This document shows, piece by piece, positions 4,485 to 62,192 of a stretch of DNA of 64,000 bases. The notes under the pieces were generated by a model, which saw nothing but the letters and a program-made list of their open reading frames with translations, was not told the origin of the DNA and ran no database searches. Location: positions 5,320-69,319 of the forward strand of contig JAIXQT010000249.1 of the NCBI GenBank assembly GCA_027485595.1. Reading direction: 5' to 3'. The stretch's first letter is position 1; the number at the start of each line of letters is the position of its first letter. The position numbers and the translations under genes were made by a program. The stretch is from Pseudomonadota bacterium. GTDB taxonomy: Bacteria; Bdellovibrionota_C; UBA2361; OMII01.

Positions 4485-5498
4485 TCAATGAGGCTCAACC
4501 TCTATCTGCGACCCCTTAAAACGCAGGACCTGGTAGTCGAAGTCAAGGTGACGGTCTCCTTCTTCGTTCACCTCATGAAGCCCGACGATAGCGAACGGCT
4601 TGTCTGTGGTACCGGTTACCAAGAGAGCGGCGTCGTGGAATACCGCGGCCGACACCACATGATCCGACCTTCCGTGACGATCGGTATAGCTCCTTATAAA
4701 TTCTGGAGAGAGCCGAGGTGCTGTAAACCAAACACCCTCAAAAGCTCCTGCCGCGCTCTCAATATCAGCCGACGCCTCAATGAAATTGCACCCAATCAGA
4801 GGGATATCAACACGAAGAGAACGAAGCTGTCGCGCAAAGCGTCCATTCAATCCCGCCGCAAGACACACACCTATCGCGTCAAAGCCACCCGCCTTCGCTT
4901 TCAGGATTGAGGCTTGAAAACTATCTGGATTGGTCGAGAAATCCTCCCATATACTATCCGGGAATTCGTCCGTCAGCGCGCGAGCCCATTCAGTGGTGTA
5001 GGTATGCGTTGAGGTGAAGAGCGCGAGTTTCTTATATCCCCGCCGCTTTATCTCGCCCGCCATGAAGGAGAAATCCTTCGCGTTTGAGGTCCACAGTCTA
5101 AGAGCGTACGGATTATCCGCGAACTTAACACCTGACGCCCACGCAAGGAGCGGGATTTTATGTTTCAACGCTATCGGCGCGATAGCCTGCGCGGTGACAG
5201 TATCACCCACGAGAACGCCTGAGATCTTGTCCACCTCAACTAATTTGCGAAACGCGGAGACGCTCCGGGCGGGAAGAAACCCATCATCTTCGTAGATGAA
5301 CGTAGCCTTTGAACCAACATCGGCCAGCTCAATACCCCGTCGATATGCCTGACCGTAGGCGCCCCAATCCCCCGTATAGCTCGCGAGAACACCAACCTTT
5401 TGCTGAGCTGCCACCGGTGAGCAGAGGAATACAAAGATACATGACGAGAGAAGTGCTCGCTTTACCGAGGGCATGCGTCCGAACATGGAATTCTCCAT
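4485..5498 (-). CDS. Periplasmic substrate-binding protein, LivJ/Peripla_BP_6-like (ABC-type, amino-acid family)
   Basis: Signal-peptide-like SVKRALLSSCIFVFLCSPVAAQQ is followed by KVGVLASYTGDWGAYGQAYRRGIELA, typical of branched-chain amino-acid type binding proteins. The start is ambiguous (Met at 5498, 5486 or 5474; the ORF extends to 5543). Confidence 0.65.
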   Translation of the reverse strand: MENSMFGRMPSVKRALLSSCIFVFLCSPVAAQQKVGVLASYTGDWGAYGQAYRRGIELADVGSKATFIYEDDGFLPARSVSAFRKLVEVDKISGVLVGDTVTAQAIAPIALKHKIPLLAWASGVKFADNPYALRLWTSNAKDFSFMAGEIKRRGYKKLALFTSTHTYTTEWARALTDEFPDSIWEDFSTNPDSFQASILKAKAGGFDAIGVCLAAGLNGRFARQLRSLRVDIPLIGCNFIEASADIESAAGAFEGVWFTAPRLSPEFIRSYTDRHGRSDHVVSAAVFHDAALLVTGTTDKPFAIVGLHEVNEEGDRHLDFDYQVLRFKGSQIEVEPH

Positions 5499-7024: not shown

Positions 7025-8361
7025 TATGCCTTCTTCTTTGCGTTTGATCTCACAGACGCCACGTTAACAGCCGCGTGAGTTTTCTTCAGATCTTCGATCA
7101 TCGCGATAACAGCCGCTGGTGGACGAATCTCTGATGGCGAATCCATGATCTTCGCCTTCATTGGGTCGACGTATTTGCCCTTATCGAAGAGGCCGAAGTG
7201 GAGATGAACACCGCTTGCAAGTCCCGTACGCCCAACCGTTCCGATCACATCACCACGACCAATACGAGCGCCCTTGCGAACGTTCTTTCCTATTGAATTG
7301 AGGTGCATGTACTCAGTTGTGTAGCGATCGTTGTGCTTGATGCGAACAACATTCCCTGTACTTGAGCCGTAGCCAGCCTGTACCACCACACCATCACCTA
7401 CCGTTCGAACGGGCGTACCGAGCGGAGCGGCGAAATCAACACCGTTGTGTGGCCGAGAGATCTTTAGAACTGGGTGGAAACGGGAGAACGCGAACATCGA
7501 GGAGATACGGCTATACTTGAGGGGATAGCGAAGAAACGCCTTGGTTGGCATCGATCCCTTCTCGTCGAAGTAGCGAACGGTGCCATCCTTTGAGACATCT
7601 CGCACAACCGCGAGCATCTTTCCACTTAACTGAATCGAAGCGGCCTTAATCACACCGGGAGCAAGTCGCTCACCATCCTCAGAGACACGGTCTTCGTAAA
7701 TCACCGTGAAGGAATCGCCCGGTTGAATGTCCTTGGTGAACTCAACGCGATTAGAGAAGAGGTCAACGAAATCATCCACGAGGGAGAAGGGGATCTCTAA
7801 CCCGGTCGCCGAATCACCGAGGGAGGAAACAATAGTGCCGGTAACTCGACGCTCTTTGCTGATAACTTTAAGTTTATCGACCTTTACCGCGTAGCTACCG
7901 TGATCATCACGAGTAAGAATAACGGTTGCGTTCTCACCCTGCTTCTTTCGAACCTCTATGACTTCGCCGTTGAGTTGCGTAACCGCAAGCTCCTCTCCAA
8001 CTCGAAGAGATCCAGCGTTCACACCGGAGTCCTTCAACGCGTCGAGCACCGCGGTAACATCATCAACATCTCCACCGATCTCCCTCCACAACGAATTGAA
8101 GGTGGCGCCTTTCCTTACAGCGTGCTGGAAGGAACGAACGATCGGTTGTTGAGGGGGTGGCGGAGCTATCTCCGCTGGTTGTTCATGAAGGGAGTCCGCA
8201 AGTTGGTGAATGGGGCTCTCTTCGTCGTGCAGAAGCTCTCTAGATAGCTCACCCGTTCCGGCCCGGCCGAAAAGGATCTCATGGGGTAGAACCCCTTTTG
8301 TGAGGAGAGCGGCACCGGCGACTACGATGGTAGCGCGCGCGGCCCAGATGTACTTCTTCAT
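7024..8361 (-). CDS. M23 family peptidoglycan metalloendopeptidase
   Basis: N-terminal TM/signal. The C-terminus carries HNGVDFAAPLGTPV and GVHLHFGL (LytM/M23 zinc ligands). Its stop overlaps the cinA start (TAATG). Confidence 0.85.
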   Translation of the reverse strand: MKKYIWAARATIVVAGAALLTKGVLPHEILFGRAGTGELSRELLHDEESPIHQLADSLHEQPAEIAPPPPQQPIVRSFQHAVRKGATFNSLWREIGGDVDDVTAVLDALKDSGVNAGSLRVGEELAVTQLNGEVIEVRKKQGENATVILTRDDHGSYAVKVDKLKVISKERRVTGTIVSSLGDSATGLEIPFSLVDDFVDLFSNRVEFTKDIQPGDSFTVIYEDRVSEDGERLAPGVIKAASIQLSGKMLAVVRDVSKDGTVRYFDEKGSMPTKAFLRYPLKYSRISSMFAFSRFHPVLKISRPHNGVDFAAPLGTPVRTVGDGVVVQAGYGSSTGNVVRIKHNDRYTTEYMHLNSIGKNVRKGARIGRGDVIGTVGRTGLASGVHLHFGLFDKGKYVDPMKAKIMDSPSEIRPPAAVIAMIEDLKKTHAAVNVASVRSNAKKKA

Positions 8362-8512
8362 GCAGACCGGACTTTACTTGCATATGAGGCTGCTCACAAC
8401 CCCTGCAACCCCATCTATCTCCCTCAAACAATGGATAATCTTGAGTCCGGCTGGAGAAAAGGCAACGGCGCACGTACCCCGACTCCACAACACCGGGTAT
8501 ACTAAACGACGT

Positions 8513-50756: not shown

Positions 50757-52514
50757 TTACAGGCCAAGCTTGAGCCGAAGCGCTTCGATCTCCCGCTCTC
50801 GTTCTTCAATAGAGAGTTCGGTGATCCACGGTGGCAAGACAGCCGGATAGCTGCAGTGCTTAGCCGCAATCAAGCCTTGGAATCGGCGACGCTCAGGGAG
50901 CGCCTCGGCTGCCGGAGGACGCCACAGTTCAAGCACCCTTTGGAGGGGTGTATCCTTGTGGGCCTTGGCCTCAGCGATCAACTCGCTGAGATCCCGCGAT
51001 GACCACGTCTCCGTGGTCTTGAGCAACGTCGCTTTGAACTCATTCGGGACGGTGATGCCGGCCCGAGTAAGAAGCTGCACGACGAACTCTTCGCGTTCGG
51101 CGCCTTGCAGATCCAAGATCGGAATCTGCACCGATGCACGCGAAACGATATCCGGGTCGAGCAGGTCAGGGCGTGAGGTCATCAGCACCCAGAGAAGCCT
51201 TCCCCGAAACCGCTTGTCACTCATCATCTGGATGATGCGCCCCGAAAGGCGTTTCTCCGTCTCATGAGAGTCTCGACTGTGCACCGAACCGAATGCCGTA
51301 TGCGCTTCATCGACCGTAATAAGAACACGGCCGAAGTTGAGGAGCTGAAAGCGCAGCAACTCAAAGAGCGCGTCGGTTCCGCCATACCACTGGGAGCGAA
51401 GTCCGGTGAGTTCGATCACCGTACGTCCACTCTTCGCGGCGAAGGCTTCAACCGTATAGGTCTTACCGCCTCCGTTTGGACCGGGAACGATAATCACTGG
51501 CACCGCCGTCGCCGGATCGTCACACCGATCGAAGGCGAACTGCATCGATTCCTTGACTGCCTTGAACCCCACAAGGTCATCTGGTGTGTGGGTCGGCATC
51601 TTGAGGATTGCGATTCCGTTGAGCGCCACCGCGAGGTGGTTGTTGGCTTCCACCAACAGTCCTTTGCGACAGACGGGCTGTTGTTCACCCGCCGCCTGCA
51701 TCAGAACACTCTCCAGTTTCTTGAGCTGCAATCCAGCGCCATCCTGCGCGATCGTTTCAATCGTGGGATCGAACGTCACGTTTGCATACGCAGGCTTTCG
51801 CCCCGTGTGCCGCAGGAAATGGAGCCGCTCGGACTCAGTCGGGAGCCCAATCTCAATCGGCTCGACCGTGGGAAGATTCAGCACCGCGCGATTAAGCTGC
51901 GATAGCTGGTCAACCACGATCACGACCAGGTTATGTCCCTGGTAGAAGTCGCTTTCAAACCAACTCAGAGCCTCAGCGACTCGGAGCCGATCGAGCTCGG
52001 GCAACTTCTCCAACTCACCGCTGGGGAGCATAGTGGCTCCATGAGCGATGAGCACAGCGAGCGCGGGGAGTTTTGGCTCCTTGGCGCGCGCCGCTTCCAC
52101 ACCTTCGCAGATGTGTCGCGCCAACACGAGGTTGGGCAACGGTGCATGGTTGTTGTGCGGGTCGGGCAGGCTTTGCACCTGCTTTGCGACCCCCTCAAAA
52201 TCCTTGCCTGCTTTTTTGAGCGTTTCAGCGACTCCCTTTCGGTCGTCCTCCGAAGGGAAGCTCAAGCCGCGAGCGGGATCAAAGAGGATAGTGTTGAACC
52301 GCACCTCGTCTCCGGCCCTGTCGTCTTCTCGCTGCCAGCGGCCGGTAAGCCGGACGCTCAGCAGATCGATCAGTGACATGTATTCCCCCTTGCGAGGGTT
52401 CCAGAAGAGGTCGTTGCGGTTCCCGTAAAGAACCACCACCCGTTTGCCGCGAAGCGAGAAGGCTCGTTCCACGGAATCAGAGAATGGTGGCCATGAAGGT
52501 GCGGCACTATTCAT
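50757..52514 (-). CDS. Tandem AAA ATPase: degenerate N-terminal AAA-like domain plus intact classical AAA domain
   Basis: D2 has Walker A GPNGGGKTY, Walker B LITVDEAH and the SRH-like MTSRPDLLDPDIVSRASVQIPI. The N-terminal half has an AAA-like layout (VVVLYGNRNDLF, LAVLIAHGA, EPIEIGLPTESERLHFL) but no P-loop Lys. ATG at 52514 overlaps the ABC-ATPase stop by 8 nt (ATGAATAG). Confidence 0.8.
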   Translation of the reverse strand: MNSAAPSWPPFSDSVERAFSLRGKRVVVLYGNRNDLFWNPRKGEYMSLIDLLSVRLTGRWQREDDRAGDEVRFNTILFDPARGLSFPSEDDRKGVAETLKKAGKDFEGVAKQVQSLPDPHNNHAPLPNLVLARHICEGVEAARAKEPKLPALAVLIAHGATMLPSGELEKLPELDRLRVAEALSWFESDFYQGHNLVVIVVDQLSQLNRAVLNLPTVEPIEIGLPTESERLHFLRHTGRKPAYANVTFDPTIETIAQDGAGLQLKKLESVLMQAAGEQQPVCRKGLLVEANNHLAVALNGIAILKMPTHTPDDLVGFKAVKESMQFAFDRCDDPATAVPVIIVPGPNGGGKTYTVEAFAAKSGRTVIELTGLRSQWYGGTDALFELLRFQLLNFGRVLITVDEAHTAFGSVHSRDSHETEKRLSGRIIQMMSDKRFRGRLLWVLMTSRPDLLDPDIVSRASVQIPILDLQGAEREEFVVQLLTRAGITVPNEFKATLLKTTETWSSRDLSELIAEAKAHKDTPLQRVLELWRPPAAEALPERRRFQGLIAAKHCSYPAVLPPWITELSIEEREREIEALRLKLGL

Positions 52515-53427
52515 GCGACACCTCCTTTGCGCGTGGTTCAACAGACACAGCATCCGAATGGGTGGTAACCCTCTCGGAGAGCTTAAGCGGCTTCTGGCCG
52601 TTCGGCTCAATCGCGGTGCGACGAATCAGCTCAACCGAGTCGAGGAAGGCAGCGTCCAGCTTGTATCGCTGGTCGTGCATCTGCCGTCCCCCAGGGGTTT
52701 CGATATCCACCACCACAAGCGCACCGTTTCCGGATGCGCCATCGTCGTAGGTCCAGTGCTGGGAGAGACCGATCACTCGGCTCCCCAGGAACACGGCCTC
52801 GCGCAGATCGTGAGAGACAAAGAAGATGGTCATCTTCCCGCCGTCCCACTTCTCCAACACGAGGTCTTGGATCCCACGACGTGTGGTTTCATCGAGACCC
52901 GAACACGGCTCGTCCATCACCAGCACCTTCGGTTCGGTGATGAGAGCCAACGCGATTGCAACCCGCTGCTGCATGCCTCCGGAGAGTTCGTGGGGGAACT
53001 TCTTTTCAGCGTCCGTGGGGAGCCCCACATCAGCCAGAAGTGCTCGGGCTCGTTCCCGAGCCTCACGACGAACACGCCAATAGCTTGGCAGCAAGAGCAA
53101 CCGTTCAGAGAGGTTAGAGTGAAGGCCTTCGTATCCAAGGGCCACGTTATCGAGGACGGTCGCATGGGGCATCAGGTTAAGTCGGTAGTCTTGGTAGACG
53201 ATACCGGCTTTTGTGCTTACCCCACTAACTTCCTCGCCGTCGATCGCCACTGAACCAAAACTCGGTGAGAGCGCTCCGAAGAGCAGGTTCAGAAGCGTTG
53301 ATTTGCCGCAGCCGGATGGACCGACCGCAGTGACCAGTTCCCCTGCGGAAACTGGGAGGTGAACGCGGTTCAGGATCGTGCGACCCGGAAAACGCATTCC
53401 CACTTCATGGAACAGGATGTTTGACAT
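52507..53427 (-). CDS. ABC transporter ATP-binding protein, NitT/TauT (SsuB/TauB-like) family
   Basis: GPSGCGKST, LSGGMQQR, LVMDEP and the H-loop SHD. It has a ~70-aa C-terminal extension. Confidence 0.88.
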   Translation of the reverse strand: MSNILFHEVGMRFPGRTILNRVHLPVSAGELVTAVGPSGCGKSTLLNLLFGALSPSFGSVAIDGEEVSGVSTKAGIVYQDYRLNLMPHATVLDNVALGYEGLHSNLSERLLLLPSYWRVRREARERARALLADVGLPTDAEKKFPHELSGGMQQRVAIALALITEPKVLVMDEPCSGLDETTRRGIQDLVLEKWDGGKMTIFFVSHDLREAVFLGSRVIGLSQHWTYDDGASGNGALVVVDIETPGGRQMHDQRYKLDAAFLDSVELIRRTAIEPNGQKPLKLSERVTTHSDAVSVEPRAKEVSHE

Positions 53428-53465: not shown

Positions 53466-54353
53466 TCACTTTTTGTTGAACCACGGATACCTCCACGAGA
53501 TCCACACACCCAAGAGACGGTCGATGATGAAACAGAGCAGAGCCACCCACAAAACGTAGGGGATGATCTGGTCCATCAACATATTTCTCTTGAGGAGGTA
53601 AACCCGGTACCCAATCCCCGCGGAGGCCGCGAGGAATTCGGCCGCCATAAGACAGGCCACCCCCATTTGGAGCGACTCGCGAATGGCGGTAACGACCTTC
53701 GGCGCGATACCCGGCAGAATGACCCGATAGAGGATCTCAAACTGGGAGAGCCCAAGACTCTGCTTACCTTGGATAAGCTTCATCGGAACCTCGGACGCCG
53801 CGTTGTAGGTCGCGAGCGTTACCGAGAAGAAGAAGCCGATGATGACCGCCATAATTTTAGGCAGCTCATCGATTCCAAAGGCGATGACCAGCACCGGCGA
53901 AATCAGGATCGGGGGAACGAACCCCAGAACCCTAATCACCGGACCGAACATCGCTCCGCAGTACGGGAACGCTCCCATATGCAGCCCGAGAAGTACGGCG
54001 ATACCGACCCCATAGGCGTACGCCCACAGCAGCCGTTTGCCGGACGCGATGGTGTCAACTTTCAGGATCGGCTGTTTGAGTCGCATATCCTCTTTAAGGG
54101 CGATGGTTTTCACCCCGGCAAGGATCTGCTTTGGATACGGCATGATTTTTTCTTTATCGATGCCATCGTTTTCCACAATGCTTGCAGCGTGACGCTGCTT
54201 GGCTTTGTGAATGTATGTTCCGCATAGAACGAGGAACGGAATGATCGCGAGGATCGCCGCTATCGTTCTCGTCGGAACACAGTCGGTGCGGAGAAACGGG
54301 TTTCTAATCCGTTTCCACCACGGTCGTTGCGTCGAAGACGCGCTTGTTTGCAT
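53466..54353 (-). CDS. ABC transporter permease, NitT/TauT (SsuC/TauC-like) family
   Basis: 295 aa with 6-7 TM segments and a BPD_transp_1-like EAA region (QGKQSLGLSQFEILYRVILP). Confidence 0.85.
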   Translation of the reverse strand: MQTSASSTQRPWWKRIRNPFLRTDCVPTRTIAAILAIIPFLVLCGTYIHKAKQRHAASIVENDGIDKEKIMPYPKQILAGVKTIALKEDMRLKQPILKVDTIASGKRLLWAYAYGVGIAVLLGLHMGAFPYCGAMFGPVIRVLGFVPPILISPVLVIAFGIDELPKIMAVIIGFFFSVTLATYNAASEVPMKLIQGKQSLGLSQFEILYRVILPGIAPKVVTAIRESLQMGVACLMAAEFLAASAGIGYRVYLLKRNMLMDQIIPYVLWVALLCFIIDRLLGVWISWRYPWFNKK

Positions 54354-54724: not shown

Positions 54725-55774
54725 TTACTTCGACGCAGCCTTCATATATTGCGTATCGAAACGCAAAACTACGTTGGCTTTATCTCCAACAACCGAACCA
54801 TCAGGAAAGGCGATCCCCAGGGCGTCCACCGAAGCGGCGGATCCAAGGTAGCCTTTGGCGAAGAGGAACTGCCGCACCTTTTCGGTGGCGGCCTTGTTCT
54901 CCGCGCCCTCAGTGAAGCGCACAGCGTCCTCTGGGGTCCAGAAGAGCGCCGTGGTTTTCAACTGCGCGTCATACTCGGCAAGGGTGCACTCGCTGGCTTT
55001 CGCCATCTCCGTGCGCGCCGTTTTGGCGGCCTCCGAACGACCTTGCATCCGACCAAGGATCTGATACCAGCCCTTGGCGAGGATCTGCCCGACCTTGGGA
55101 TTCTTCTTCAGCACACTGGTCTTGACGACCAGGAGATCCTGGATCTCTCCGGGGATCTTTGCGCTGTCGAAGAGCCGCACAGAGCCCACTTTCTGCTCAC
55201 ACTGGAGCGTGAAGGGGGCCCAGGTCGTCACCGATGGCACCTGACCGCTGGTGAAGGCGGCGGTGAGTTCTGATTCGGCCTGGTTGTAGAGGCTAAACGA
55301 GCTGAGGTCTCCCCCAAGCTGTTCAACCCCCCGCGCCAGGAGATACTCGCTCACGGATTTCTCCACGATTGAGATCTTTTTGCCCTTGAGGTCCGCGAAC
55401 GATCTGACCGATTTGCCGTCGCCGATAACAGCATCGTTGCCGTTGCTGTAATCACCCATAACGACCACCGTACTGTCGATTCCGGCGGAGCCGGGACCCA
55501 TCAGGAGGTCCATGTTGGTGATGACGATGGCGTCGGTCTGGCCGGAGGCGTAGTTCTCAATCGTTTCCCCGTAGGTGCGGGGGACGAACTCGAACGTGAC
55601 TCCTTCAGCTTTCCCGAGTTCAGCGAAGATGCCGTTGGTGTCGCCGTAGTAATACGGCATCCAACCGGCGTAGACGCTGATCCCGACCTTGACGGTTTCA
55701 GCGGAAGCGGCGGTGATGCCGCCGATGATAAGGAGCGCACTACATGCGCTGCGAATGAGTGAGGTAAGTTTCAT
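54725..55774 (-). CDS. ABC transporter substrate-binding protein, NMT1/SsuA/TauA-like
   Basis: Signal peptide MKLTSLIRSACSALLIIGGITAASA, then VKVGISVYAGWMPYYY..., DLKGKKISIVEKSVSEYLL, typical of NitT/TauT family binding proteins. Confidence 0.82.
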   Translation of the reverse strand: MKLTSLIRSACSALLIIGGITAASAETVKVGISVYAGWMPYYYGDTNGIFAELGKAEGVTFEFVPRTYGETIENYASGQTDAIVITNMDLLMGPGSAGIDSTVVVMGDYSNGNDAVIGDGKSVRSFADLKGKKISIVEKSVSEYLLARGVEQLGGDLSSFSLYNQAESELTAAFTSGQVPSVTTWAPFTLQCEQKVGSVRLFDSAKIPGEIQDLLVVKTSVLKKNPKVGQILAKGWYQILGRMQGRSEAAKTARTEMAKASECTLAEYDAQLKTTALFWTPEDAVRFTEGAENKAATEKVRQFLFAKGYLGSAASVDALGIAFPDGSVVGDKANVVLRFDTQYMKAASK

Positions 55775-55863: not shown

Positions 55864-56685
55864 TTAGCCGGCCATTGTGGGTTTCGTGGCTTCGGTCTCC
55901 TTCTTGTCAGCGCCGTCCGACGTGCCACCTTCGCGCTCTTTTCTGCGCGCGGCGAGCATTTCGGCCATGCGGTTACCAGAGGTCGACTGCGACCCGGCTG
56001 CCTCATACTGAGCGTCCTGACGGGCGACATCGGTGCCGGCGAGACGCTCGGAGATACGAGCTTTGGACTTGAGGTCCTCATTGGATTTGAGAACAGCTGC
56101 CACCGGATCGAACTCATCGTGCTGCGACAGCCCGGCAAGGCGGTCGTTGAGCTCGATAAGCTGCTCCGACGAGACGCGATCGGCGATCGCTTGAGCCTCT
56201 TTAGCAGGCAGATCACGCAGCTCGGCTTGGAGCTTCGTGAGGTTCTGCATGTGAGACTGCATGCTGTTCTCGAGTTCCTTGATGGACTGTGCCAGTTGGA
56301 GCTCTTCCGCTTCGAGGCGCTGAATGTCAGCGTCAAAGCGGTCGAACGCCGCCTGGTGGCGGTCCTTCTCGGCTTGCTCATTGGCTTTTTCAAAGAGGCT
56401 CAGCGCCCCTTCGCGTTTGCCGAGGAGTTCCTTGAGGCTCTTGCCGACCTCGGTGAGGCGATTGCGTTTGCCTTGGATCACGCCTTCCACCTGAGCGACC
56501 GCGTCACGGAGGTCCGTGTAGCGTTTACTCAGGTTCATGGCCTTGATCTCGAAGGCGTCCTTGATACCGTCCACAGAGCCCGTGAATTGGGCTTCTGCGG
56601 ACCGCTTAATTCCGAGCGCGGCTCGGATCCACCGGAACAAAAAGAAGTTCCAGATACTTTTGGTCATTGAGGGTCTAGTTTGCAT
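55864..56685 (-). CDS. PspA/IM30 (Vipp1/ESCRT-III superfamily)-like protein
   Basis: Amphipathic N-terminal helix (SIWNFFLFRWIRAALGI), then long heptad-like helices. LRDAVAQVEGVIQGKRNRL resembles the PspA/Vipp1 helix-1 region, and QRLEAEELQLAQSIKELENSMQ is a further example. The C-terminal tail is charged and flexible. The start is ATG 56685 or 56667; the track ORF extension to 56859 overlaps the upstream gene. Confidence 0.55.
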   Translation of the reverse strand: MQTRPSMTKSIWNFFLFRWIRAALGIKRSAEAQFTGSVDGIKDAFEIKAMNLSKRYTDLRDAVAQVEGVIQGKRNRLTEVGKSLKELLGKREGALSLFEKANEQAEKDRHQAAFDRFDADIQRLEAEELQLAQSIKELENSMQSHMQNLTKLQAELRDLPAKEAQAIADRVSSEQLIELNDRLAGLSQHDEFDPVAAVLKSNEDLKSKARISERLAGTDVARQDAQYEAAGSQSTSGNRMAEMLAARRKEREGGTSDGADKKETEATKPTMAG

Positions 56686-56701: not shown

Positions 56702-57691
56702 TTACTGCCCTTTGTTTCCGGCTTCGAGATACACCTGATCGTCAACCGCTCCGTTGAGGGCGGGTTTGTTGAGACGACCTTCGACACGACGGGCCGCCTG
56801 GAGAGCCATGGTGAGGCTATCCGGGGCGCCGTTGTGCAGTGCTGCCGCTTGAACTCCAACCGGGAGGTCAGCGGCTATCTCGAGCTTGGCTTCATTGAAT
56901 GCGGTCGTAAGGGCATCGACAGCATCCATCGCTTGTTCCAGTTCCTGTTCCTTCTCTTCGTGCAGTTCGATCAGCCTTGTGAGCTGATTGAACCGTGCAC
57001 GAGCCGTCTCGTCCTCATTCTCAGACAGCTTCCTCTGAAGGCGCGTTCTCTGTCCCCGTTGTGTGCTCACATCGGATTCTTCGAGCGCTTCGTGAAGTTG
57101 ACTGGCCTGTTTGAGGATGACGATACCGTGGAGAAAGTTCTCCTCGGCTAGTTCGAGGTAGCGGGTCGACCGCCGGCCGCGTAACGGATCGTTTATGTGC
57201 GCTCTGAGGTCCTCGATGAGGCCCTCAAAAGCCACCTTGAAGTTTTTGGCGCGGCGAGCAAGCTCCTCCGCATCTCTTCGGTTCAGGTTCTGAATTACTG
57301 TGACAATTTCCTCAAGCTGTGCGCGCCGAAGCGCTTCACGAAACTCAAGGACTACCTTCTTGGCGTATTCAGGCCCGCGGTACAGGTACCGGTAGGCGAA
57401 TGTGCTAAGACCAACAAAGGCGAGCCCTACGGAGGCAACGAGGCCTCCAAGGCTCGCCCCAAAAAGAAGCCCATGCGTCATCAGGACCGAGATCAACCCG
57501 AGCGGGTATCTCCAGATCCATCCGGAATGCATGACCTTCCGCATCGTTCGGCGTTGAATATCAGCAGGGGTAAGGCTGCTGAGCATCTCGGCCGGCGAAG
57601 ACACATCAGTGAAGGAGTCGTTCCCCCACACAGGGCCGGAAGGGGGACCAGTGCCTCCCTCCGGCTCATAATCATATTTTCGTACGGCCAT
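56702..57691 (-). CDS. Two-TM membrane protein with ~230-aa cytoplasmic helical/coiled-coil domain
   Basis: TM pair WRYPLGLISVLMTHGLLFGASLGGLVASVGLAFVGLSTFAY, then helical repeats rich in E/R/L/A (ELARRAKNFKVAFEGLIEDLRA, EEKEQELEQAMDAVDALTTAF). I recognised no family. The architecture is reminiscent of XpaC/TelA-like helical proteins. Confidence 0.6.
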   Translation of the reverse strand: MAVRKYDYEPEGGTGPPSGPVWGNDSFTDVSSPAEMLSSLTPADIQRRTMRKVMHSGWIWRYPLGLISVLMTHGLLFGASLGGLVASVGLAFVGLSTFAYRYLYRGPEYAKKVVLEFREALRRAQLEEIVTVIQNLNRRDAEELARRAKNFKVAFEGLIEDLRAHINDPLRGRRSTRYLELAEENFLHGIVILKQASQLHEALEESDVSTQRGQRTRLQRKLSENEDETARARFNQLTRLIELHEEKEQELEQAMDAVDALTTAFNEAKLEIAADLPVGVQAAALHNGAPDSLTMALQAARRVEGRLNKPALNGAVDDQVYLEAGNKGQ

Positions 57692-57710: not shown

Positions 57711-59282
57711 TTAGAGTTTAGTCCCCTCCACCAGGATGAATTCAACTCGGGCCATGCGCGCGCGATACGCTCGCTCACCCTCGTTCTTCTTCCTGATGGG
57801 AGGTTTTGTTGACCCTGCTCCTTCGGCTTTTACTCGGTTCGGATCAACCCCGTGTGTTACGCGCAGGTATTGCGCCACCACTTGGGCACGCTCAAGAGAG
57901 AGCGCTTGATTTTGAACCTCATCGCCGTAGCCGGTGTGACCTCGGATGATCACACGCAACGCGGAGTAGTTGTTATTGAGAAGCTCCGCTGCTTTATCCA
58001 CCGCCTGTTTACCGGATTCGTCGAGCAGGTTGTTTCCCTGCTGAAACGTCACCGGGTCTACATTGAGTGGTCCGTATTCGCGAAGCTTCTTCCATCCGGC
58101 GTCATCGATCTGCTCAAAGGTCACCTCGTTCGCCACGGTCGTGGCGTCAAGGATCCCTACCGAACGTTTCGACAGCTCTTCAAGGACGCTTTTGTTGATG
58201 ATCTGAAACGGATTTACACCCGCAAAGGACTTTGTGCGACGCAGAACGTCGCTGCACGAGCTGACCGTGTCCACGATCTTTTCGCTCGTTCTCGCCCCTT
58301 TTCCAGTATCAACGCCAAACTGCACTTGGCAGTTCTCGAACAGGTCTGCCCAATCGAAATGGGGCAAAACCTGCTCAAGCCGATCCCGCTTAATTCCCGT
58401 ATCTTTCGCCATTTCATCCAGCATCTTGGTTTTGTTCATCTGGTAGTAAGCCAGAGTGCCAAAATACGCTTCGAAGAAGCGGAGCAGCTCGCTTGGTTGC
58501 TTGTCGATCACCTCGCGGTGCACGACAAACACGTCCACGATATACCCCTGGAAGGCATCAGATCCGAGAATAACTTTGAGTCGCTTATCCTCCAAGGCTT
58601 TGGAGAGTTCAGGTTCCCAGAGCATTGCGGCATCAACTTGCCGAGCTTTTAGTGCCTCTTCCACTTTGTCGATGGCTGTCTTCGGCTGTCTCCATCCCGC
58701 GCTTTCACGCAGAGAGGGTAGGTCGAAGTTGGCAGTCACCATGTCGAGGAAGAAGCTGCTCGGACTCGCGTCTACATAGGCTACCTTCGCTCCGTTTAAG
58801 AGCTCGGTTACCTTACCGGTTGGAAAACGATCGCTGTAGCCTACAAGAGCGTCAGCCCCCGCAGAATCTGCAACGACCCCGACAATCACACCTGGGTAGC
58901 TGAGCTTGTGGCCCAGCTCCAGGTAGACATTCACGGGGAGCACCATCGCCTGGTACTCCCCGCGACTAAACTTCTCAAGCCTAGACACATAATCCCCGTT
59001 GTCATCATTGAAGCGGATATCCAGCCCTTTTGTGGGGCCCTGTCTCCGCATCTCCGGTGATTTCAAGAACCAGTATCCGAGATAGCCATCACCCGCGACG
59101 GTGAAGGCCTTTGCTTGCGAGCGAGGGTCGCTCGTTCGAAGTTGCACCCCCTCCTCCGCTTTCTGCTTCCTCATGTCCCAGAGCTTGGTGACCCCCCAGA
59201 TTGCGAGCAATCCAAGGATAGCGATTCCCACCAAGATGAAGAACTTGAAGGAGCTCGGCGGCTCTTCGTTCTCGTAGTTCAC
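57711..59282 (-). CDS. N-terminally TM-anchored binding-protein-like domain fused to OmpA-like peptidoglycan-binding domain
   Basis: GTG start and TM FKFFILVGIAILGLLAIWGV. The central PBP type-2-like region is followed by a C-terminal OmpA_C-like segment: RVIIRGHTGYGD...LSLERAQVVAQYL...ARVEFILV. Confidence 0.75.
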   Translation of the reverse strand: MNYENEEPPSSFKFFILVGIAILGLLAIWGVTKLWDMRKQKAEEGVQLRTSDPRSQAKAFTVAGDGYLGYWFLKSPEMRRQGPTKGLDIRFNDDNGDYVSRLEKFSRGEYQAMVLPVNVYLELGHKLSYPGVIVGVVADSAGADALVGYSDRFPTGKVTELLNGAKVAYVDASPSSFFLDMVTANFDLPSLRESAGWRQPKTAIDKVEEALKARQVDAAMLWEPELSKALEDKRLKVILGSDAFQGYIVDVFVVHREVIDKQPSELLRFFEAYFGTLAYYQMNKTKMLDEMAKDTGIKRDRLEQVLPHFDWADLFENCQVQFGVDTGKGARTSEKIVDTVSSCSDVLRRTKSFAGVNPFQIINKSVLEELSKRSVGILDATTVANEVTFEQIDDAGWKKLREYGPLNVDPVTFQQGNNLLDESGKQAVDKAAELLNNNYSALRVIIRGHTGYGDEVQNQALSLERAQVVAQYLRVTHGVDPNRVKAEGAGSTKPPIRKKNEGERAYRARMARVEFILVEGTKL

Positions 59283-59293
59283 GTTTGTGTTGG

Positions 59294-60013
59294 TTACTTT
59301 ACTGGATCGAAGGACTCTAATTCAGCCGTGGCGTCTGCCAGGGCTTTTTTGAGTTCTTCGAGATTCTGTGCATTCTGATAGAACACGCTCCACTGTCGCA
59401 GGGCGTGGTCTCCTGCCAATTGGAATCCGATGGTGTACAGCGGGATCGACTCCCCCTGATCGAGTAGACGTTGCATCTTCCGTGTGAACGGCGTCAGCGA
59501 GTCACTCGATTGTCCATCGGTAAGGACGATAAGCCGAAACTCACCGTATCCCAACTGCATCGCTCTTTTCGCAACGAGCGTTTCCGTGCCTTGTACGCAC
59601 GCGCGACCAAGCGGGGTTCCTCCGCTGGCAGCAAGGTTGTTGATCGCTTTCAGGATCGCTACTCGGTTTTTGAGACCAAGTGGTACCCGCTCACCTTCTC
59701 CATCCGCGTCGAAGGCATAGAGCCCGATAGCAACCTCCTCTGGGAGTCTGTTTACGAGCTCAAGAGCAGCCATCTTCGCGCTTCGGATACGATCCCCGTC
59801 CATCGAACCGCTCCCGTCTAAGACGAGGTAGAAGTTCTTCTGTAGAGACTGGACCGCGCCCGGCGGTGGAGGGTCAGGAGGCGTTTGCGCGCCTCCTGTC
59901 GTTGACGTTGTATTCGATGCCTCAGTTGCAGGGCTTTTAGGGCCCTGGGGTGGTGGATCGCAACTGGTCAGTCCGACCAGCGCCACACAAGCAAGTGGAA
60001 AGAAACGTTTCAT
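59294..60013 (-). CDS. VWA-domain lipoprotein
   Basis: Lipobox LVGLTSC, a Pro-rich linker and MIDAS motifs LVLDGSGSMDG ... GGTPL ... VLTDGQ. AAAGGAG lies upstream. Confidence 0.82.
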   Translation of the reverse strand: MKRFFPLACVALVGLTSCDPPPQGPKSPATEASNTTSTTGGAQTPPDPPPPGAVQSLQKNFYLVLDGSGSMDGDRIRSAKMAALELVNRLPEEVAIGLYAFDADGEGERVPLGLKNRVAILKAINNLAASGGTPLGRACVQGTETLVAKRAMQLGYGEFRLIVLTDGQSSDSLTPFTRKMQRLLDQGESIPLYTIGFQLAGDHALRQWSVFYQNAQNLEELKKALADATAELESFDPVK

Positions 60014-60038: not shown

Positions 60039-61718
60039 TTACTTGCTTGGGGTGAATTCAGCTGCTTCGGCCTCCACGTTCAACACGCGGAATACGACAC
60101 GACGGTTCGCCGACCATTCTTCTTTGGTTTTAGGTTGCGGGAATTTCGGTGAGGAAACGCCCCTACCCGTAGCCAAGAACTGCGATTCGTCAACAAGGAG
60201 TCCCTTGGTCTTGCAATAGGCCAGGTAACTCTGACGAACCGCGTTTGCTCGATTGAGCGAGAGGTTTTTTGCAGCCAGCTCTTTTTGCTGGACGATAAGC
60301 GGATTTTCACCCGCTGCTCTCGCTTTCTCAATTCCGGTCGGATCACTGTGTCCCTCTACCGCCACAACCGCACCACCGAAGGTGCTGGCGAGCTTCAGGG
60401 CTTTTTCGTAATCGTTAGCGTAGCGCGCTATGTCGAAACTGGCTTGATTGGGGTCGAAGTTAATTTCAACCACAAACAGCGTACCAGAGTCCCACGATGT
60501 CGATTCAGCTTCGATGGCCGAGGCCAACTTGGCGGAATCAAACTTCGCGGACGCGACCGCGGATGTGTCGGTGTTCTTCAGACCAGCGGCGAGTGCCGCA
60601 TAGTCCCATTCAGCATGAGTCAGCGCGGTTTTGCCACGCATCAACCCCATGCCTACTAACGTTGCTTGAATCTCTTCAGAGATGACGTTGAAGTTACGGA
60701 GCGTTCCGAGAGCTTTGAAGAACTGAACATTTCCCGCGTGCGACACGAATTCAGCGTCACTGATCATCCCTTCCACGTCAGCTGTCATCGTTGAAGTGCC
60801 GAACAGAAGCTCGGCGCTTTTCGACAAAAGCTGCTGATACCTCGCACCTTTTTGAGCGCTCATATCACCCAAGGCCTCCTGACCACGCATAAGGACATGC
60901 ACGATCTTCTGCGCCTTGTCGCGGTTGGCGTCCAGCCAGTCCTTGCGGACAGCCCAGACGTCAGCGATCACCTTGCTCGCTGTCTTGGTAGACAGCGAGA
61001 TGCGAGCATCCTTTACAGAACCCTCACTACCGGTCCCCACCTTACCTCCGCTGGTCAGAGCGGCGGCGTCGGGAGAGATAGCAGCGATAGCGGCGATCGA
61101 GGCGTCGGTGCCGAAGGCAGATACGGGATCAACCGCTTTGCCCTTTGTGTCGTATTTCGGGAGGGTGAGCTCCTTCATCCACACAAAGCTCACATCACGG
61201 GGAGAGAGCCCCGCGCTTGAGAGCACCGTTCCCACATAGTCCATATGGGGGCCGAAAAGCTGAAGGGCGATTTTTTTCCCTTTCAGATCGGCCGGCTTGA
61301 GATCGCCACGCACAACCACGGTGTCGCCACCGTTGGACCAGGTAATCTGGTTGAGCACGACAAGCGGAACCCCTGCCTTCGCGAATGCCGGTTGAACGGC
61401 AAGCACTTGGGCCATGGTTCCACGAAAGAACGGCGATTCGCCGTTCAAGACCGACTGCGCCTGTTTGAGAGCGTCATCCTCATGCTTGAGCGTGTAGTCC
61501 ACGCCTTCCGCCGAGTCGAAGCCCTCCATGTCAGCGAGGATCGCCGCCACGTCGCCACCCCACGTGATCACAGGCAGCGTGAGCGGCCCGGCTTTCACAG
61601 GAGATGCCTTCGTGGAGAGGGTGTCCTCAGCAGGTTTGGCGTTTTCGGTAACAACCTGCGCTCCGAGGGGGAGCGCAGACATCATAAGAGCGGCAAGAGC
61701 CGCGAGGTTTGGTTTCAT
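60039..61718 (-). CDS. Secreted NMT1/SsuA-like binding-protein domain fused to OmpA-like peptidoglycan-binding domain
   Basis: Signal peptide MKPNLAALAALMMSALPLGAQV (ATG 61718). ADLKGKKIALQLFGPHMDYVGTVLSSAGLSPRDVSFVWM is typical of NitT/TauT binding proteins. The C-terminus is OmpA_C-like: VAVEGHSDPTG...LSLNRANAVRQSYL...NRRVVFRV. Confidence 0.78.
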   Translation of the reverse strand: MKPNLAALAALMMSALPLGAQVVTENAKPAEDTLSTKASPVKAGPLTLPVITWGGDVAAILADMEGFDSAEGVDYTLKHEDDALKQAQSVLNGESPFFRGTMAQVLAVQPAFAKAGVPLVVLNQITWSNGGDTVVVRGDLKPADLKGKKIALQLFGPHMDYVGTVLSSAGLSPRDVSFVWMKELTLPKYDTKGKAVDPVSAFGTDASIAAIAAISPDAAALTSGGKVGTGSEGSVKDARISLSTKTASKVIADVWAVRKDWLDANRDKAQKIVHVLMRGQEALGDMSAQKGARYQQLLSKSAELLFGTSTMTADVEGMISDAEFVSHAGNVQFFKALGTLRNFNVISEEIQATLVGMGLMRGKTALTHAEWDYAALAAGLKNTDTSAVASAKFDSAKLASAIEAESTSWDSGTLFVVEINFDPNQASFDIARYANDYEKALKLASTFGGAVVAVEGHSDPTGIEKARAAGENPLIVQQKELAAKNLSLNRANAVRQSYLAYCKTKGLLVDESQFLATGRGVSSPKFPQPKTKEEWSANRRVVFRVLNVEAEAAEFTPSK

Positions 61719-62192
61719 TACTAGGTATTGGGTCTGATTGTCGGTTTGATAAACCTCTACGTCGGATGTCCGAGTAACCGTACGAAGAGTCGACCATACA
61801 AACGAGAACACACATGAGAGATATCCCATGCGTCCTCACTCATTATTGTCTTGAAGAAACACTAAGCGTTGTGCGCCTACTGTCTCCTCCTCCATCTACC
61901 CACAATAAAATTTGAAAAGAGCGAACTGTTCCACGCCACGGTAGTGGTCCTAGACATCTCGATTGATAGAGGTGTTTGTGTGATGAACTACGCTGGTAAG
62001 CCCGCAGGCCCCGCGAGGAACAATGTAAGCGGCGCATTGTACCGGAATATTTGGATTCACCCAACTTTTCGAGGAAGTTACGCACTCGGGCACTTAGCCT
62101 ATTGGCAGCTGTCGGGATCGGTTCGGACGGTGGTGTTTTGGGCATATAGCCGTGACTCAATCGATTGCGAGGTCGCCTCTTTGAGGCGACGA

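Follow-up and report, generated by a model that had tools for sequence, protein, structure and literature searches.

The 64,000-nucleotide (nt) stretch analysed here, called the window throughout, spans positions 5,320 to 69,319 of the forward strand of contig JAIXQT010000249.1 (assembly GCA_027485595.1, a metagenome-assembled genome of an uncultured Pseudomonadota bacterium of the GTDB lineage Bdellovibrionota_C; UBA2361; OMII01). Its minus strand encodes g9, a tandem AAA ATPase and the last of nine co-directional genes that run from 61829/61718 down to 50757. We found that the N-terminal half of g9 (D1) is a degenerate AAA-like domain, predicted to be inactive, and that the C-terminal half (D2) is a predicted working motor. 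The constant partner of g9 across phyla is g5, a coiled-coil protein that we regard with moderate confidence as PspA/Vipp1-like, and not g8, the ATP-binding cassette (ABC) transporter ATPase whose gene overlaps that of g9. On balance, we read g9 as a type II AAA+ protein of the classical clade within a mobile envelope cassette, where it probably extracts g5 subunits from a polymer in a Vps4-like manner, a reading that we hold with some reserve.

Domain organization of g9

The gene and its elements are as follows (amino acids, aa):

50757..52514, minus strand: g9, tandem (type II) classical AAA ATPase, 585 aa plus stop (open reading frame and translation)
51615..52514, minus strand: D1, degenerate AAA-like domain, aa 1-300 (alignment, AlphaFold2 (AF2) topology, Foldseek)
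50955..51614, minus strand: D2, predicted active classical AAA module, aa 301-520 (profile and sequence matches in PDB)
51459..51482, minus strand: Walker A of D2, GPNGGGKT, aa 345-352 (G345, P346, N347, G348, G350 and K351 invariant)
51381..51398, minus strand: pore loop 1 of D2, R373-S-Q-W376-Y377-G378, aromatic-hydrophobic-Gly (aligns with KYLG of Afg2/VAT)
51306..51323, minus strand: Walker B of D2, LITVDE, aa 398-403 (V401, D402 and E403 invariant)
51138..51179, minus strand: sensor-1/second region of homology (SRH) of D2, TSRPDLLDPDIVSR, aa 446-459 (alignment)
50760..50954, minus strand: helical tail, aa 521-585, 65 residues, family-specific (alignment, model)
52521..52527, minus strand: Shine-Dalgarno-like AAGGAGG, 6 nt ahead of the g9 ATG and within the 3′ end of g8 (read from the sequence)

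All motifs quoted in the initial annotation were found in the 585-aa translation, namely GPNGGGKTY (aa 345-353), VDEAH (401-405), SRPDLLDPDIVSR (447-459), LPTESERLHFL (224-234) and a C-terminus ending in EEREREIEALRLKLGL. Among the candidates scored, 277 database proteins match g9 at E ≤ 1e-5; the best 120 of them are nearly all ~565-595 aa long and align over ~98% of the length with ~40% identity, which places g9 far from a chance open reading frame. Besides metagenomes, the sources of these relatives are named Tectomicrobia, cyanobacteria, Acidobacteriota (Sulfidibacter) and bacteria of the candidate phyla radiation (CPR). An alignment of 30 diverse members, on which the statements on residue invariance in g9 rest, has a mean column identity of 59% and ~90 invariant columns.

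The assignment of the C-terminal half to the classical AAA proteins, made in the initial annotation, was borne out by the Pfam family AAA (PF00004), which covers aa 342-465 with 50 bits against a cut-off of 21.2 (51.8 bits for D2 alone), and by the presence of both Walker motifs and the pore loop. Searches of the PDB with the sequence and the family profile retrieved the D1 domain of Afg2/Drg1, VAT, FIGL1, Cdc48/p97, spastin, katanin and Msp1 with E values of 3e-19 to 3e-11. We placed D2 by its ranked PDB matches: the best 60, which are all the matches listed, belong to VAT, Afg2, Cdc48/p97, FIGL1, spastin, katanin, Msp1, NVL or NSF, with no MoxR, ClpX, FtsH or Vps4 among them. The kinship with MoxR or ClpX that would have spoken against a classical D2 was thus not found.

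Family-wide, D2 keeps the motifs GPNGxGKT, VDEAHT, R..[WY][YF]G and TSRPDxLDPD as well as R459. Pore loop 1 has an invariant R373 and an invariant G378; position 376 holds W, Y or L (W or Y in almost all members) and position 377 holds F or Y. The SRH stretch aligns with TNRPxxxDPALRRPGR of classical AAA proteins and has T446, S447, R448, P449, D450, D453, P454, D455 and R459 as invariant residues, the last being a candidate arginine finger. From these motifs D2 is predicted to be a working motor. That g9 is instead an inert scaffold, a pseudo-ATPase in both domains, seems hardly credible to us. Such a protein would fit the sensor-1 Ser/Thr in place of Asn and the arginine pattern at the end of the SRH, where R459 is the sole invariant Arg and position 457, Lys in most members, is Val in the window protein. 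However, the Walker A Lys, the Walker B Asp-Glu, the pore aromatic and R459 show little or no variation over more than ten phyla, and motif invariance at ~40% identity points to selection for activity.

R507, in the D2 stretch YSARD (50994-50996), is nearly invariant and takes the place of the SGAD Ala of classical AAA proteins. This site corresponds to the sensor-2 position, which is normally absent in the classical clade; an arginine here is unusual for that clade.

The initial annotation had described a helical C-terminal tail of ~70 aa. We delimited it to 65 residues with four predicted helices (524-530, 539-552, 562-565 and 569-583), up to the C-terminal end given above. It matched no family in Pfam or NCBIfam, Vps4_C included, and contains the invariant residues W531, R543, Q546 and H553-C554-x-Y556-P557. 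Outside the known motifs, invariant Cys and His residues of g9 were seen at C331 (51524-51522), at H405/H412/H417 (51302-51264) and at H553-C554 with Y556-P557 (50844-50858); these might form a metal site or a surface on which the C-terminal tail docks.

The reading of the first domain as a dead AAA-like domain, also proposed in the initial annotation, is supported mainly by the predicted fold. The AF2 model of g9, built on the family alignment, has a mean predicted local distance difference test (pLDDT) score of 84.8. In Foldseek searches against the PDB its top matches are Cdc48, p97, Rix7 and Drg1/Afg2, with E values of 7e-17 to 1e-15 over ~600-650 columns. The chains 6opc_B and 6omb_B each gave E 7e-17 over ~624 aligned columns; 6omb_B (Cdc48, 561 residues) comprises D1 and D2 only, without the N-domain, and still aligns with both halves of g9. 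The alignment to Cdc48 chains reduced to D1 and D2 indicates that both halves superpose on a type II AAA protein. In the model, the order of secondary-structure elements in D1 is that of an AAA core followed by a helical lid. The position of the P-loop is taken by GNRNDLF (family consensus GNVxDLF), without the Walker A lysine, and that of Walker B by AHGAT (consensus QFAGS), without Asp-Glu, and a lid-type LPxxxERxxF motif is retained.

D1 alone matched no family in Pfam or NCBIfam. Comparing the two domains by hhalign gave a weak match (E 0.02, probability 2%) in the correct register, pairing LPxxxERxxF with the lid entry IPIxDLxGxERxxF of D2; as proof of a duplication linking D1 and D2 these values are too weak, and we rejected it as such. 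A search of 1.84 billion cluster representatives with D1 only recovered 157 clusters, mostly proteins of 550-630 aa matching at their N-terminus, the remainder being shorter fragments and three longer proteins with an internal D1. This yield marks D1 as a family-specific module. At aa 60-72 (52299-52337), D1 carries a 13-residue insertion, RWQREDDRAGDEV, which is peculiar to the clade of the window and is modelled with low confidence (pLDDT ~62).

Gene neighbourhood and the partner g5

The eight genes that precede g9 in the window, in the direction of transcription, are:

60039..61829, minus strand: g1, secreted solute-binding protein (SBP)-like (NMT1) plus OmpA-like domain (Pfam NMT1 3.4e-9, OmpA 2.3e-4); the true start is probably the internal ATG at 61718, immediately ahead of the signal peptide
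59294..60013, minus strand: g2, VWA-domain lipoprotein (Pfam VWA E 8.5e-14; lipobox-like LTSC in the translation)
57711..59282, minus strand: g3, N-terminal anchor plus SBP-like plus OmpA-like peptidoglycan-binding domain (Pfam OmpA E 8e-17; partial NCBIfam SsuA_fam, TIGR03427)
56702..57691, minus strand: g4, membrane-anchored coiled-coil protein, 329 aa (alignment of 32 orthologues)
55864..56685, minus strand: g5, PspA/Vipp1-like coiled-coil protein (moderate confidence), 267 or 273 aa (conserved family, AF2 topology, Foldseek)
54725..55774, minus strand: g6, periplasmic solute-binding protein (TIGR03427 'putative urea ABC transporter SBP', 329.5 bits, just below the cut-off of 333.9; Pfam NMT1)
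53466..54353, minus strand: g7, ABC permease, TauC/SsuC-like (Pfam BPD_transp_1; NCBIfam)
52507..53427, minus strand: g8, ABC transporter ATPase of the taurine/nitrate type, 306 aa (Pfam ABC_tran E 3.5e-31; best NCBIfam models TauB/NtrCD-like, all under their cut-offs)

A pattern scan using one genome per species yielded 73 g9 loci. They are distributed over Bdellovibrionota (relatives 90-95% identical to the window), Nitrospinota, Victivallales, Aminicenantes, Holophagae/Acanthopleuribacteraceae, Cyanobacteria, Obscuribacterales, Planctomycetota, Poribacteria, Myxococcales, KSB1, Chloroflexota, Fraserbacteria, Sumerlaeia and several CPR lineages. Within the genus of the window, g9 is present in 4 of 35 genomes, and the window's own genome holds a single copy without a paralogue. 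The nine-gene cassette is accessory and laterally mobile. In Acanthopleuribacter pedis KCTC 12899, the complete cassette lies on two scaffolds with identical internal coordinates (L048, L049), reflecting either a recent duplication or assembly redundancy.

Gene context was counted where 8.5 kb or more of sequence precedes the locus, which applies to 46 loci. In 27 of these 46 loci from more than ten phyla, all nine genes occur in identical order. g5 is present in 38, and in 31 the gene that directly precedes g9 is g8. That place belongs to g5 in Chloroflexi and Planktothrix. Seven Chloroflexota loci (L071, L076, L077, L079, L080, L081 and L085) present a minimal module without ABC transporter genes, in which a 598-aa membrane-anchored SBP-like/VWA fusion is followed by g5 and then by the AAA gene (24 nt gap in L077). 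L050 has g2-g5 and then g9 directly, again without ABC genes, and in L064 and L083 the AAA gene stands apart from g6-g8. The order is g9-g4-g5 in L072, and in L034, a metagenome-assembled genome (MAG) of Holophagae, the cassette consists of two units on opposite strands, g6-g5-g4-g3-g2-g1 and g7-g8-g9, which diverge. The constant partner of g9 is thus g5 and not the ABC ATPase. In L084, a Saccharibacteria MAG (CPR), a TelA-family protein (7155-8408; PF05816, E 3.7e-9) is encoded between g4 and the AAA gene, in the place expected for g5.

The g5 family is strongly conserved, its alignment having a mean column identity of 66% and 31 invariant columns. Several lines of evidence argue, with moderate confidence, for a PspA/Vipp1-like g5. 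The AF2 model (pLDDT 70 overall, above 90 in the hairpin) consists of an N-terminal helix a0, a long hairpin (32-94, 98-181), three short helices (a4-a6) and a disordered tail, which ends in the conserved stretch MLAARKxE...RPxI. This topology is compatible with that of the PspA/Vipp1/ESCRT-III superfamily, where a0 and a long a1-a2/3 hairpin are followed by a4 and a5. Vipp1 chains make up 9 of the top 13 Foldseek matches, covering ~235 columns over the whole length with E values of 6e-4 to 2e-2, and hhalign aligned g5 in register with PspA proteins of the same phylum (E 0.002 vs 0.037 for the reversed control). Two starts compete for g5. With ATG 56685 the protein has 273 aa and fits the N-terminal length of the family; with ATG 56667, which gene callers use in close relatives, it has 267 aa. 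Neither is preceded by a Shine-Dalgarno motif.

The C-terminal parts of g4 and g5 share a block, A[AK]AR[RI][VS]ExL[RA]G ... D..Y..AG, with equal spacing (hhalign E 0.007), which reads LExAVxAARRVExRLRG...D..Y..AG in g4 (56702-56850) and LxAKARISEKLAG.DV..QD..Y..AG in g5 (55864-56100). The AAA protein might dock on both proteins through this block, or the block might be a shared polymer contact; its presence suggests partial paralogy of g4 and g5. We also considered the label 'Snf7-like' for g4 and rejected it, as hhalign against the PspA alignment did no better than the reversed-sequence control.

No canonical PspA_IM30 scored above the cut-off in the window's own genome (G000). The same was true of two further cassette-bearing genomes of the genus (G087, G091), and 12 of 34 genus genomes have one. 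This hints at a complementary distribution of cassette and canonical PspA_IM30, in numbers that are too small and genomes that are related.

The junction between g8 and g9

Just as the initial annotation had stated, the ATG of g9 (52514-52512) lies inside the last codons of g8 (...TCG CAT GAA TAG; stop at 52509-52507). The two genes overlap by 8 nt, ATGAATAG. The AAGGAGG located 6 nt upstream supports this start. None of the alternative in-frame starts (ATG at -47, TTG at -35 and TTG at -104 relative to the ABC stop) has a Shine-Dalgarno-like motif; among the three closest relatives checked, the -47 ATG is present in L019 and L020 and not in L021. ATG 52514-52512 is the best-supported start of g9.

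From this overlap the initial annotation had deduced an unusual translational coupling and a probably fixed stoichiometry between the two ATPases; we found no support for the unusual character of the coupling or for the fixed stoichiometry. The best candidate g9 start lies at -8 in the window and in L019-L023, L043 and L062, at -4 in six loci, at -1 or +1 in about eight and at -11 to -32 in several, and a gap of +12 to +443 nt separates the genes in about ten, so that the whole range extends from -32 to +443 nt. Close spacing of g8 and g9 is frequent, yet not conserved. Moreover, genes of bacterial operons commonly overlap by 1, 4 or 8 nt, and such short overlaps do not fix the stoichiometry of the proteins.

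These data also bear on the possibility that the AAA protein chiefly serves the ABC transporter, which it would remodel or regulate in a stoichiometry fixed by coupled translation. The 8-nt overlap of start and stop in the window would fit, as would the position of g8 directly upstream of g9 in about two thirds of the well-flanked loci (31/46, as given above) and a candidate g9 start between -32 and +1 nt from the g8 stop in ~30 of 45 junctions. We nevertheless consider this improbable: the junction is not conserved and opens into the long gaps just mentioned, g9 has a strong Shine-Dalgarno motif of its own, short overlaps are commonplace, and g9 occurs with g5 in the absence of ABC genes (Chloroflexi, L050) or apart from g6-g8 (L064, L083). 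Taken together, the variable junction, the own Shine-Dalgarno motif of g9 and the modules lacking ABC genes argue for ordinary operon packing and against a device for setting stoichiometry. At most, it gives translational coupling in the lineage of the window, and such coupling to the ABC ATPase is of little importance. A scan of the cassette for sigma-70 promoters and intrinsic terminators found nothing beyond the expectation from shuffled sequence and is uninformative on transcription units.

Proposed role and relation to known systems

A protein with an inactive D1, an active D2 and an intact pore loop in a type II classical AAA architecture is expected to act as a hexamer that threads polypeptide. 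From the domain architecture, motif status, fold class, neighbourhood and conservation computed here, we infer such a hexamer for g9, with g5 as its substrate and disassembly as its activity. The D1 ring, which would no longer bind or hydrolyse nucleotides, is probably a scaffold or a ring for substrate docking. The hexamer would engage the conserved disordered C-terminal tail of g5, and perhaps that of g4, and thread the g5 tail through the D2 pore, so that subunits would be pulled from a PspA-like polymer on the membrane. For docking, the degenerate D1 ring or the conserved tail may stand in for the MIT domain of Vps4. An accessory layer that links remodelling to the uptake or sensing of a small solute would be formed by the ABC importer together with the VWA lipoprotein and the two peptidoglycan-tethered binding proteins.

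Several observations weigh against this reading. g9 contains neither MIT nor another known ESCRT-III-binding module. In 7 of the 46 well-flanked loci no g5 was seen within 10 kb, and the copies L054, L057, L059 and L087 from Acidobacteriota MAGs are solo AAA genes without any cassette gene within 10 kb; these are followed by a helicase-like gene of at least 660 aa (876-896 aa where complete) with a common N-terminal sequence, which in L059 (880 aa, the one scanned) encodes a DEAD-box helicase with DUF3516. As to g5, none of 25 family members matched Pfam PspA_IM30 (PF04012) or Snf7 (PF03357) at E ≤ 1, and the family profile retrieved no PspA/Vipp1 among PDB sequences, giving unspecific coiled-coil matches only. 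The Foldseek E values are modest (~1e-3 to 1e-2), and long coiled coils draw unspecific matches; the profile-profile signal to PspA is weak (probability 13%), and in a simple test the hydrophobic moment of the N-terminal helix was not above that of shuffled sequence.

Alternatively, g9 could be an assembly chaperone or quality-control unfoldase for envelope proteins of the cassette (g4, or the SBP-OmpA and VWA precursors) and not a motor for polymer disassembly. Many membrane proteins are substrates of classical AAA proteins such as Msp1, FtsH and Cdc48, which extract or unfold them, and D2 is about equally near to Msp1 and Cdc48. The VWA gene is kept even in the minimal Chloroflexi module, solo copies of g9 occur in other contexts, and a chaperone-like assembly role was raised by Ravi et al. 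(PMC11237479; see below). On the other hand, the most constant neighbour is g5, which adjoins g9 in the minimal modules, and the mature VWA and SBP-OmpA proteins are exported and hence beyond the reach of a cytoplasmic AAA protein. We regard this alternative as unlikely. A pairing of the MoxR-VWA type, which the VWA gene in the cassette might have indicated, was rejected, D2 being of the classical clade and the VWA protein an exported lipoprotein. A known defence system was likewise rejected, as PADLOC gave only weak similarity to TRIP13 (AAA) and LmuB (coiled-coil).

The proposed extraction of g5 subunits resembles what is known of Vps4/CdvC and ESCRT-III in eukaryotes and archaea, where the AAA protein extracts subunits, the same job that we propose for g9. 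In both cases a classical-clade AAA protein with an aromatic pore loop is encoded beside a polymer-forming protein like those of the ESCRT-III superfamily, putative in the case of g5, with a conserved disordered C-terminal tail. Vps4, however, has one AAA domain, an N-terminal MIT domain, a beta-domain and the Vps4_C helix, whereas g9 is a tandem protein without these. Cdc48/p97/VAT, Rix7/NVL and Afg2/Drg1 are the nearest structures over both domains and the nearest sequences for D2; Cdc48-type proteins differ by their double-psi-barrel N-domain, which is absent in g9, and by the inactive D1 and family-specific HCxYP tail of the latter. No Pfam match to MIT, Vps4_C, CDC48_N or CDC48_2 was found in g9, and the NCBIfam model for CDC48 (TIGR01243) scored 28-30 bits against a cut-off of 802.65. 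The label 'Vps4/Cdc48-style' in the initial annotation therefore stands as a functional analogy and falls as a family assignment, the defining domains of both being absent; judged by its domain content, g9 is a member of neither family.

One non-hydrolysing scaffold ring combined with one motor ring is familiar from Pex1/Pex6 and NSF. In Pex1/Pex6 it is D1 that is degenerate, as in g9. The likeness is architectural; these systems are eukaryotic and have other N-domains, and Pex1/6 is heterohexameric. In Proteobacteria, PspF is an AAA+ protein functionally paired with PspA; it differs as a sigma-54 enhancer-binding AAA+ of another clade, a transcription factor that PspA inhibits, whereas g9 belongs to the classical clade and has no DNA-binding domain.

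Proteins combining 'inactive-classical-AAA + classical-AAA' have been described as neighbours of PspA by Ravi, Anantharaman, Aravind, Gennaro et al. (mSystems 2024; PMC11237479; section 18, Text S2.2, Table S3). According to this purely computational study, these genes and one for a transmembrane-anchored divergent Snf7-like protein may belong to longer operons that also encode a PBPB-OmpA protein and an ABC ATPase with its permease, and the proposed function is ATP-dependent membrane remodelling (PMC11237479). g9 belongs to this computationally described kind, with which it shares the dead N-terminal and the active classical AAA domain and neighbours that comprise a PspA-like protein, a transmembrane coiled-coil protein, an ABC ATPase, a permease and a PBPB-OmpA protein. 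The comparison with their examples (AEY64320.1, neighbour of OGG56892.1) was made by published description, and the PspA identity of g5 by fold similarity only. The gene order of their Handelsmanbacteria example (OGG56892.1) differs from the nine-gene order found here, and the VWA lipoprotein, the second SBP-OmpA protein and the free SBP are unmentioned in that study. New here are a nine-gene order that is fixed across phyla, a minimal module of VWA, g5 and AAA genes, the block shared by g4 and g5, the restricted distribution of D1 and the variable junction of g8 and g9. We found no experimental work on the g9 family in the literature.

Going further, the cassette as a whole might be a true bacterial counterpart of ESCRT-III/Vps4, with g4 as nucleator and g5 as polymer sharing a docking block, turnover by a hexamer with a dead D1, and a tie to ABC import through peptidoglycan-tethered SBPs. 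We offer this larger picture as tentative and lean somewhat against it. What disassembles the ESCRT-III-like polymers of bacteria (PspA, Vipp1) is still an open question. The g9 family is a concrete and widespread candidate for this role, and cultivable carriers such as Sulfidibacter corallicola and Acanthopleuribacter pedis make it directly testable. According to a 2025 review, a Vps4-like ATPase 'appears absent in bacteria' (PMC7619361). If g9 acts as proposed, it would overturn the view that bacteria lack a Vps4-like regulator of PspA polymers and would show that classical AAA motors and ESCRT-III-like polymers have been paired a second time, independently, here with recognition that would be by a degenerate AAA ring and not by MIT.

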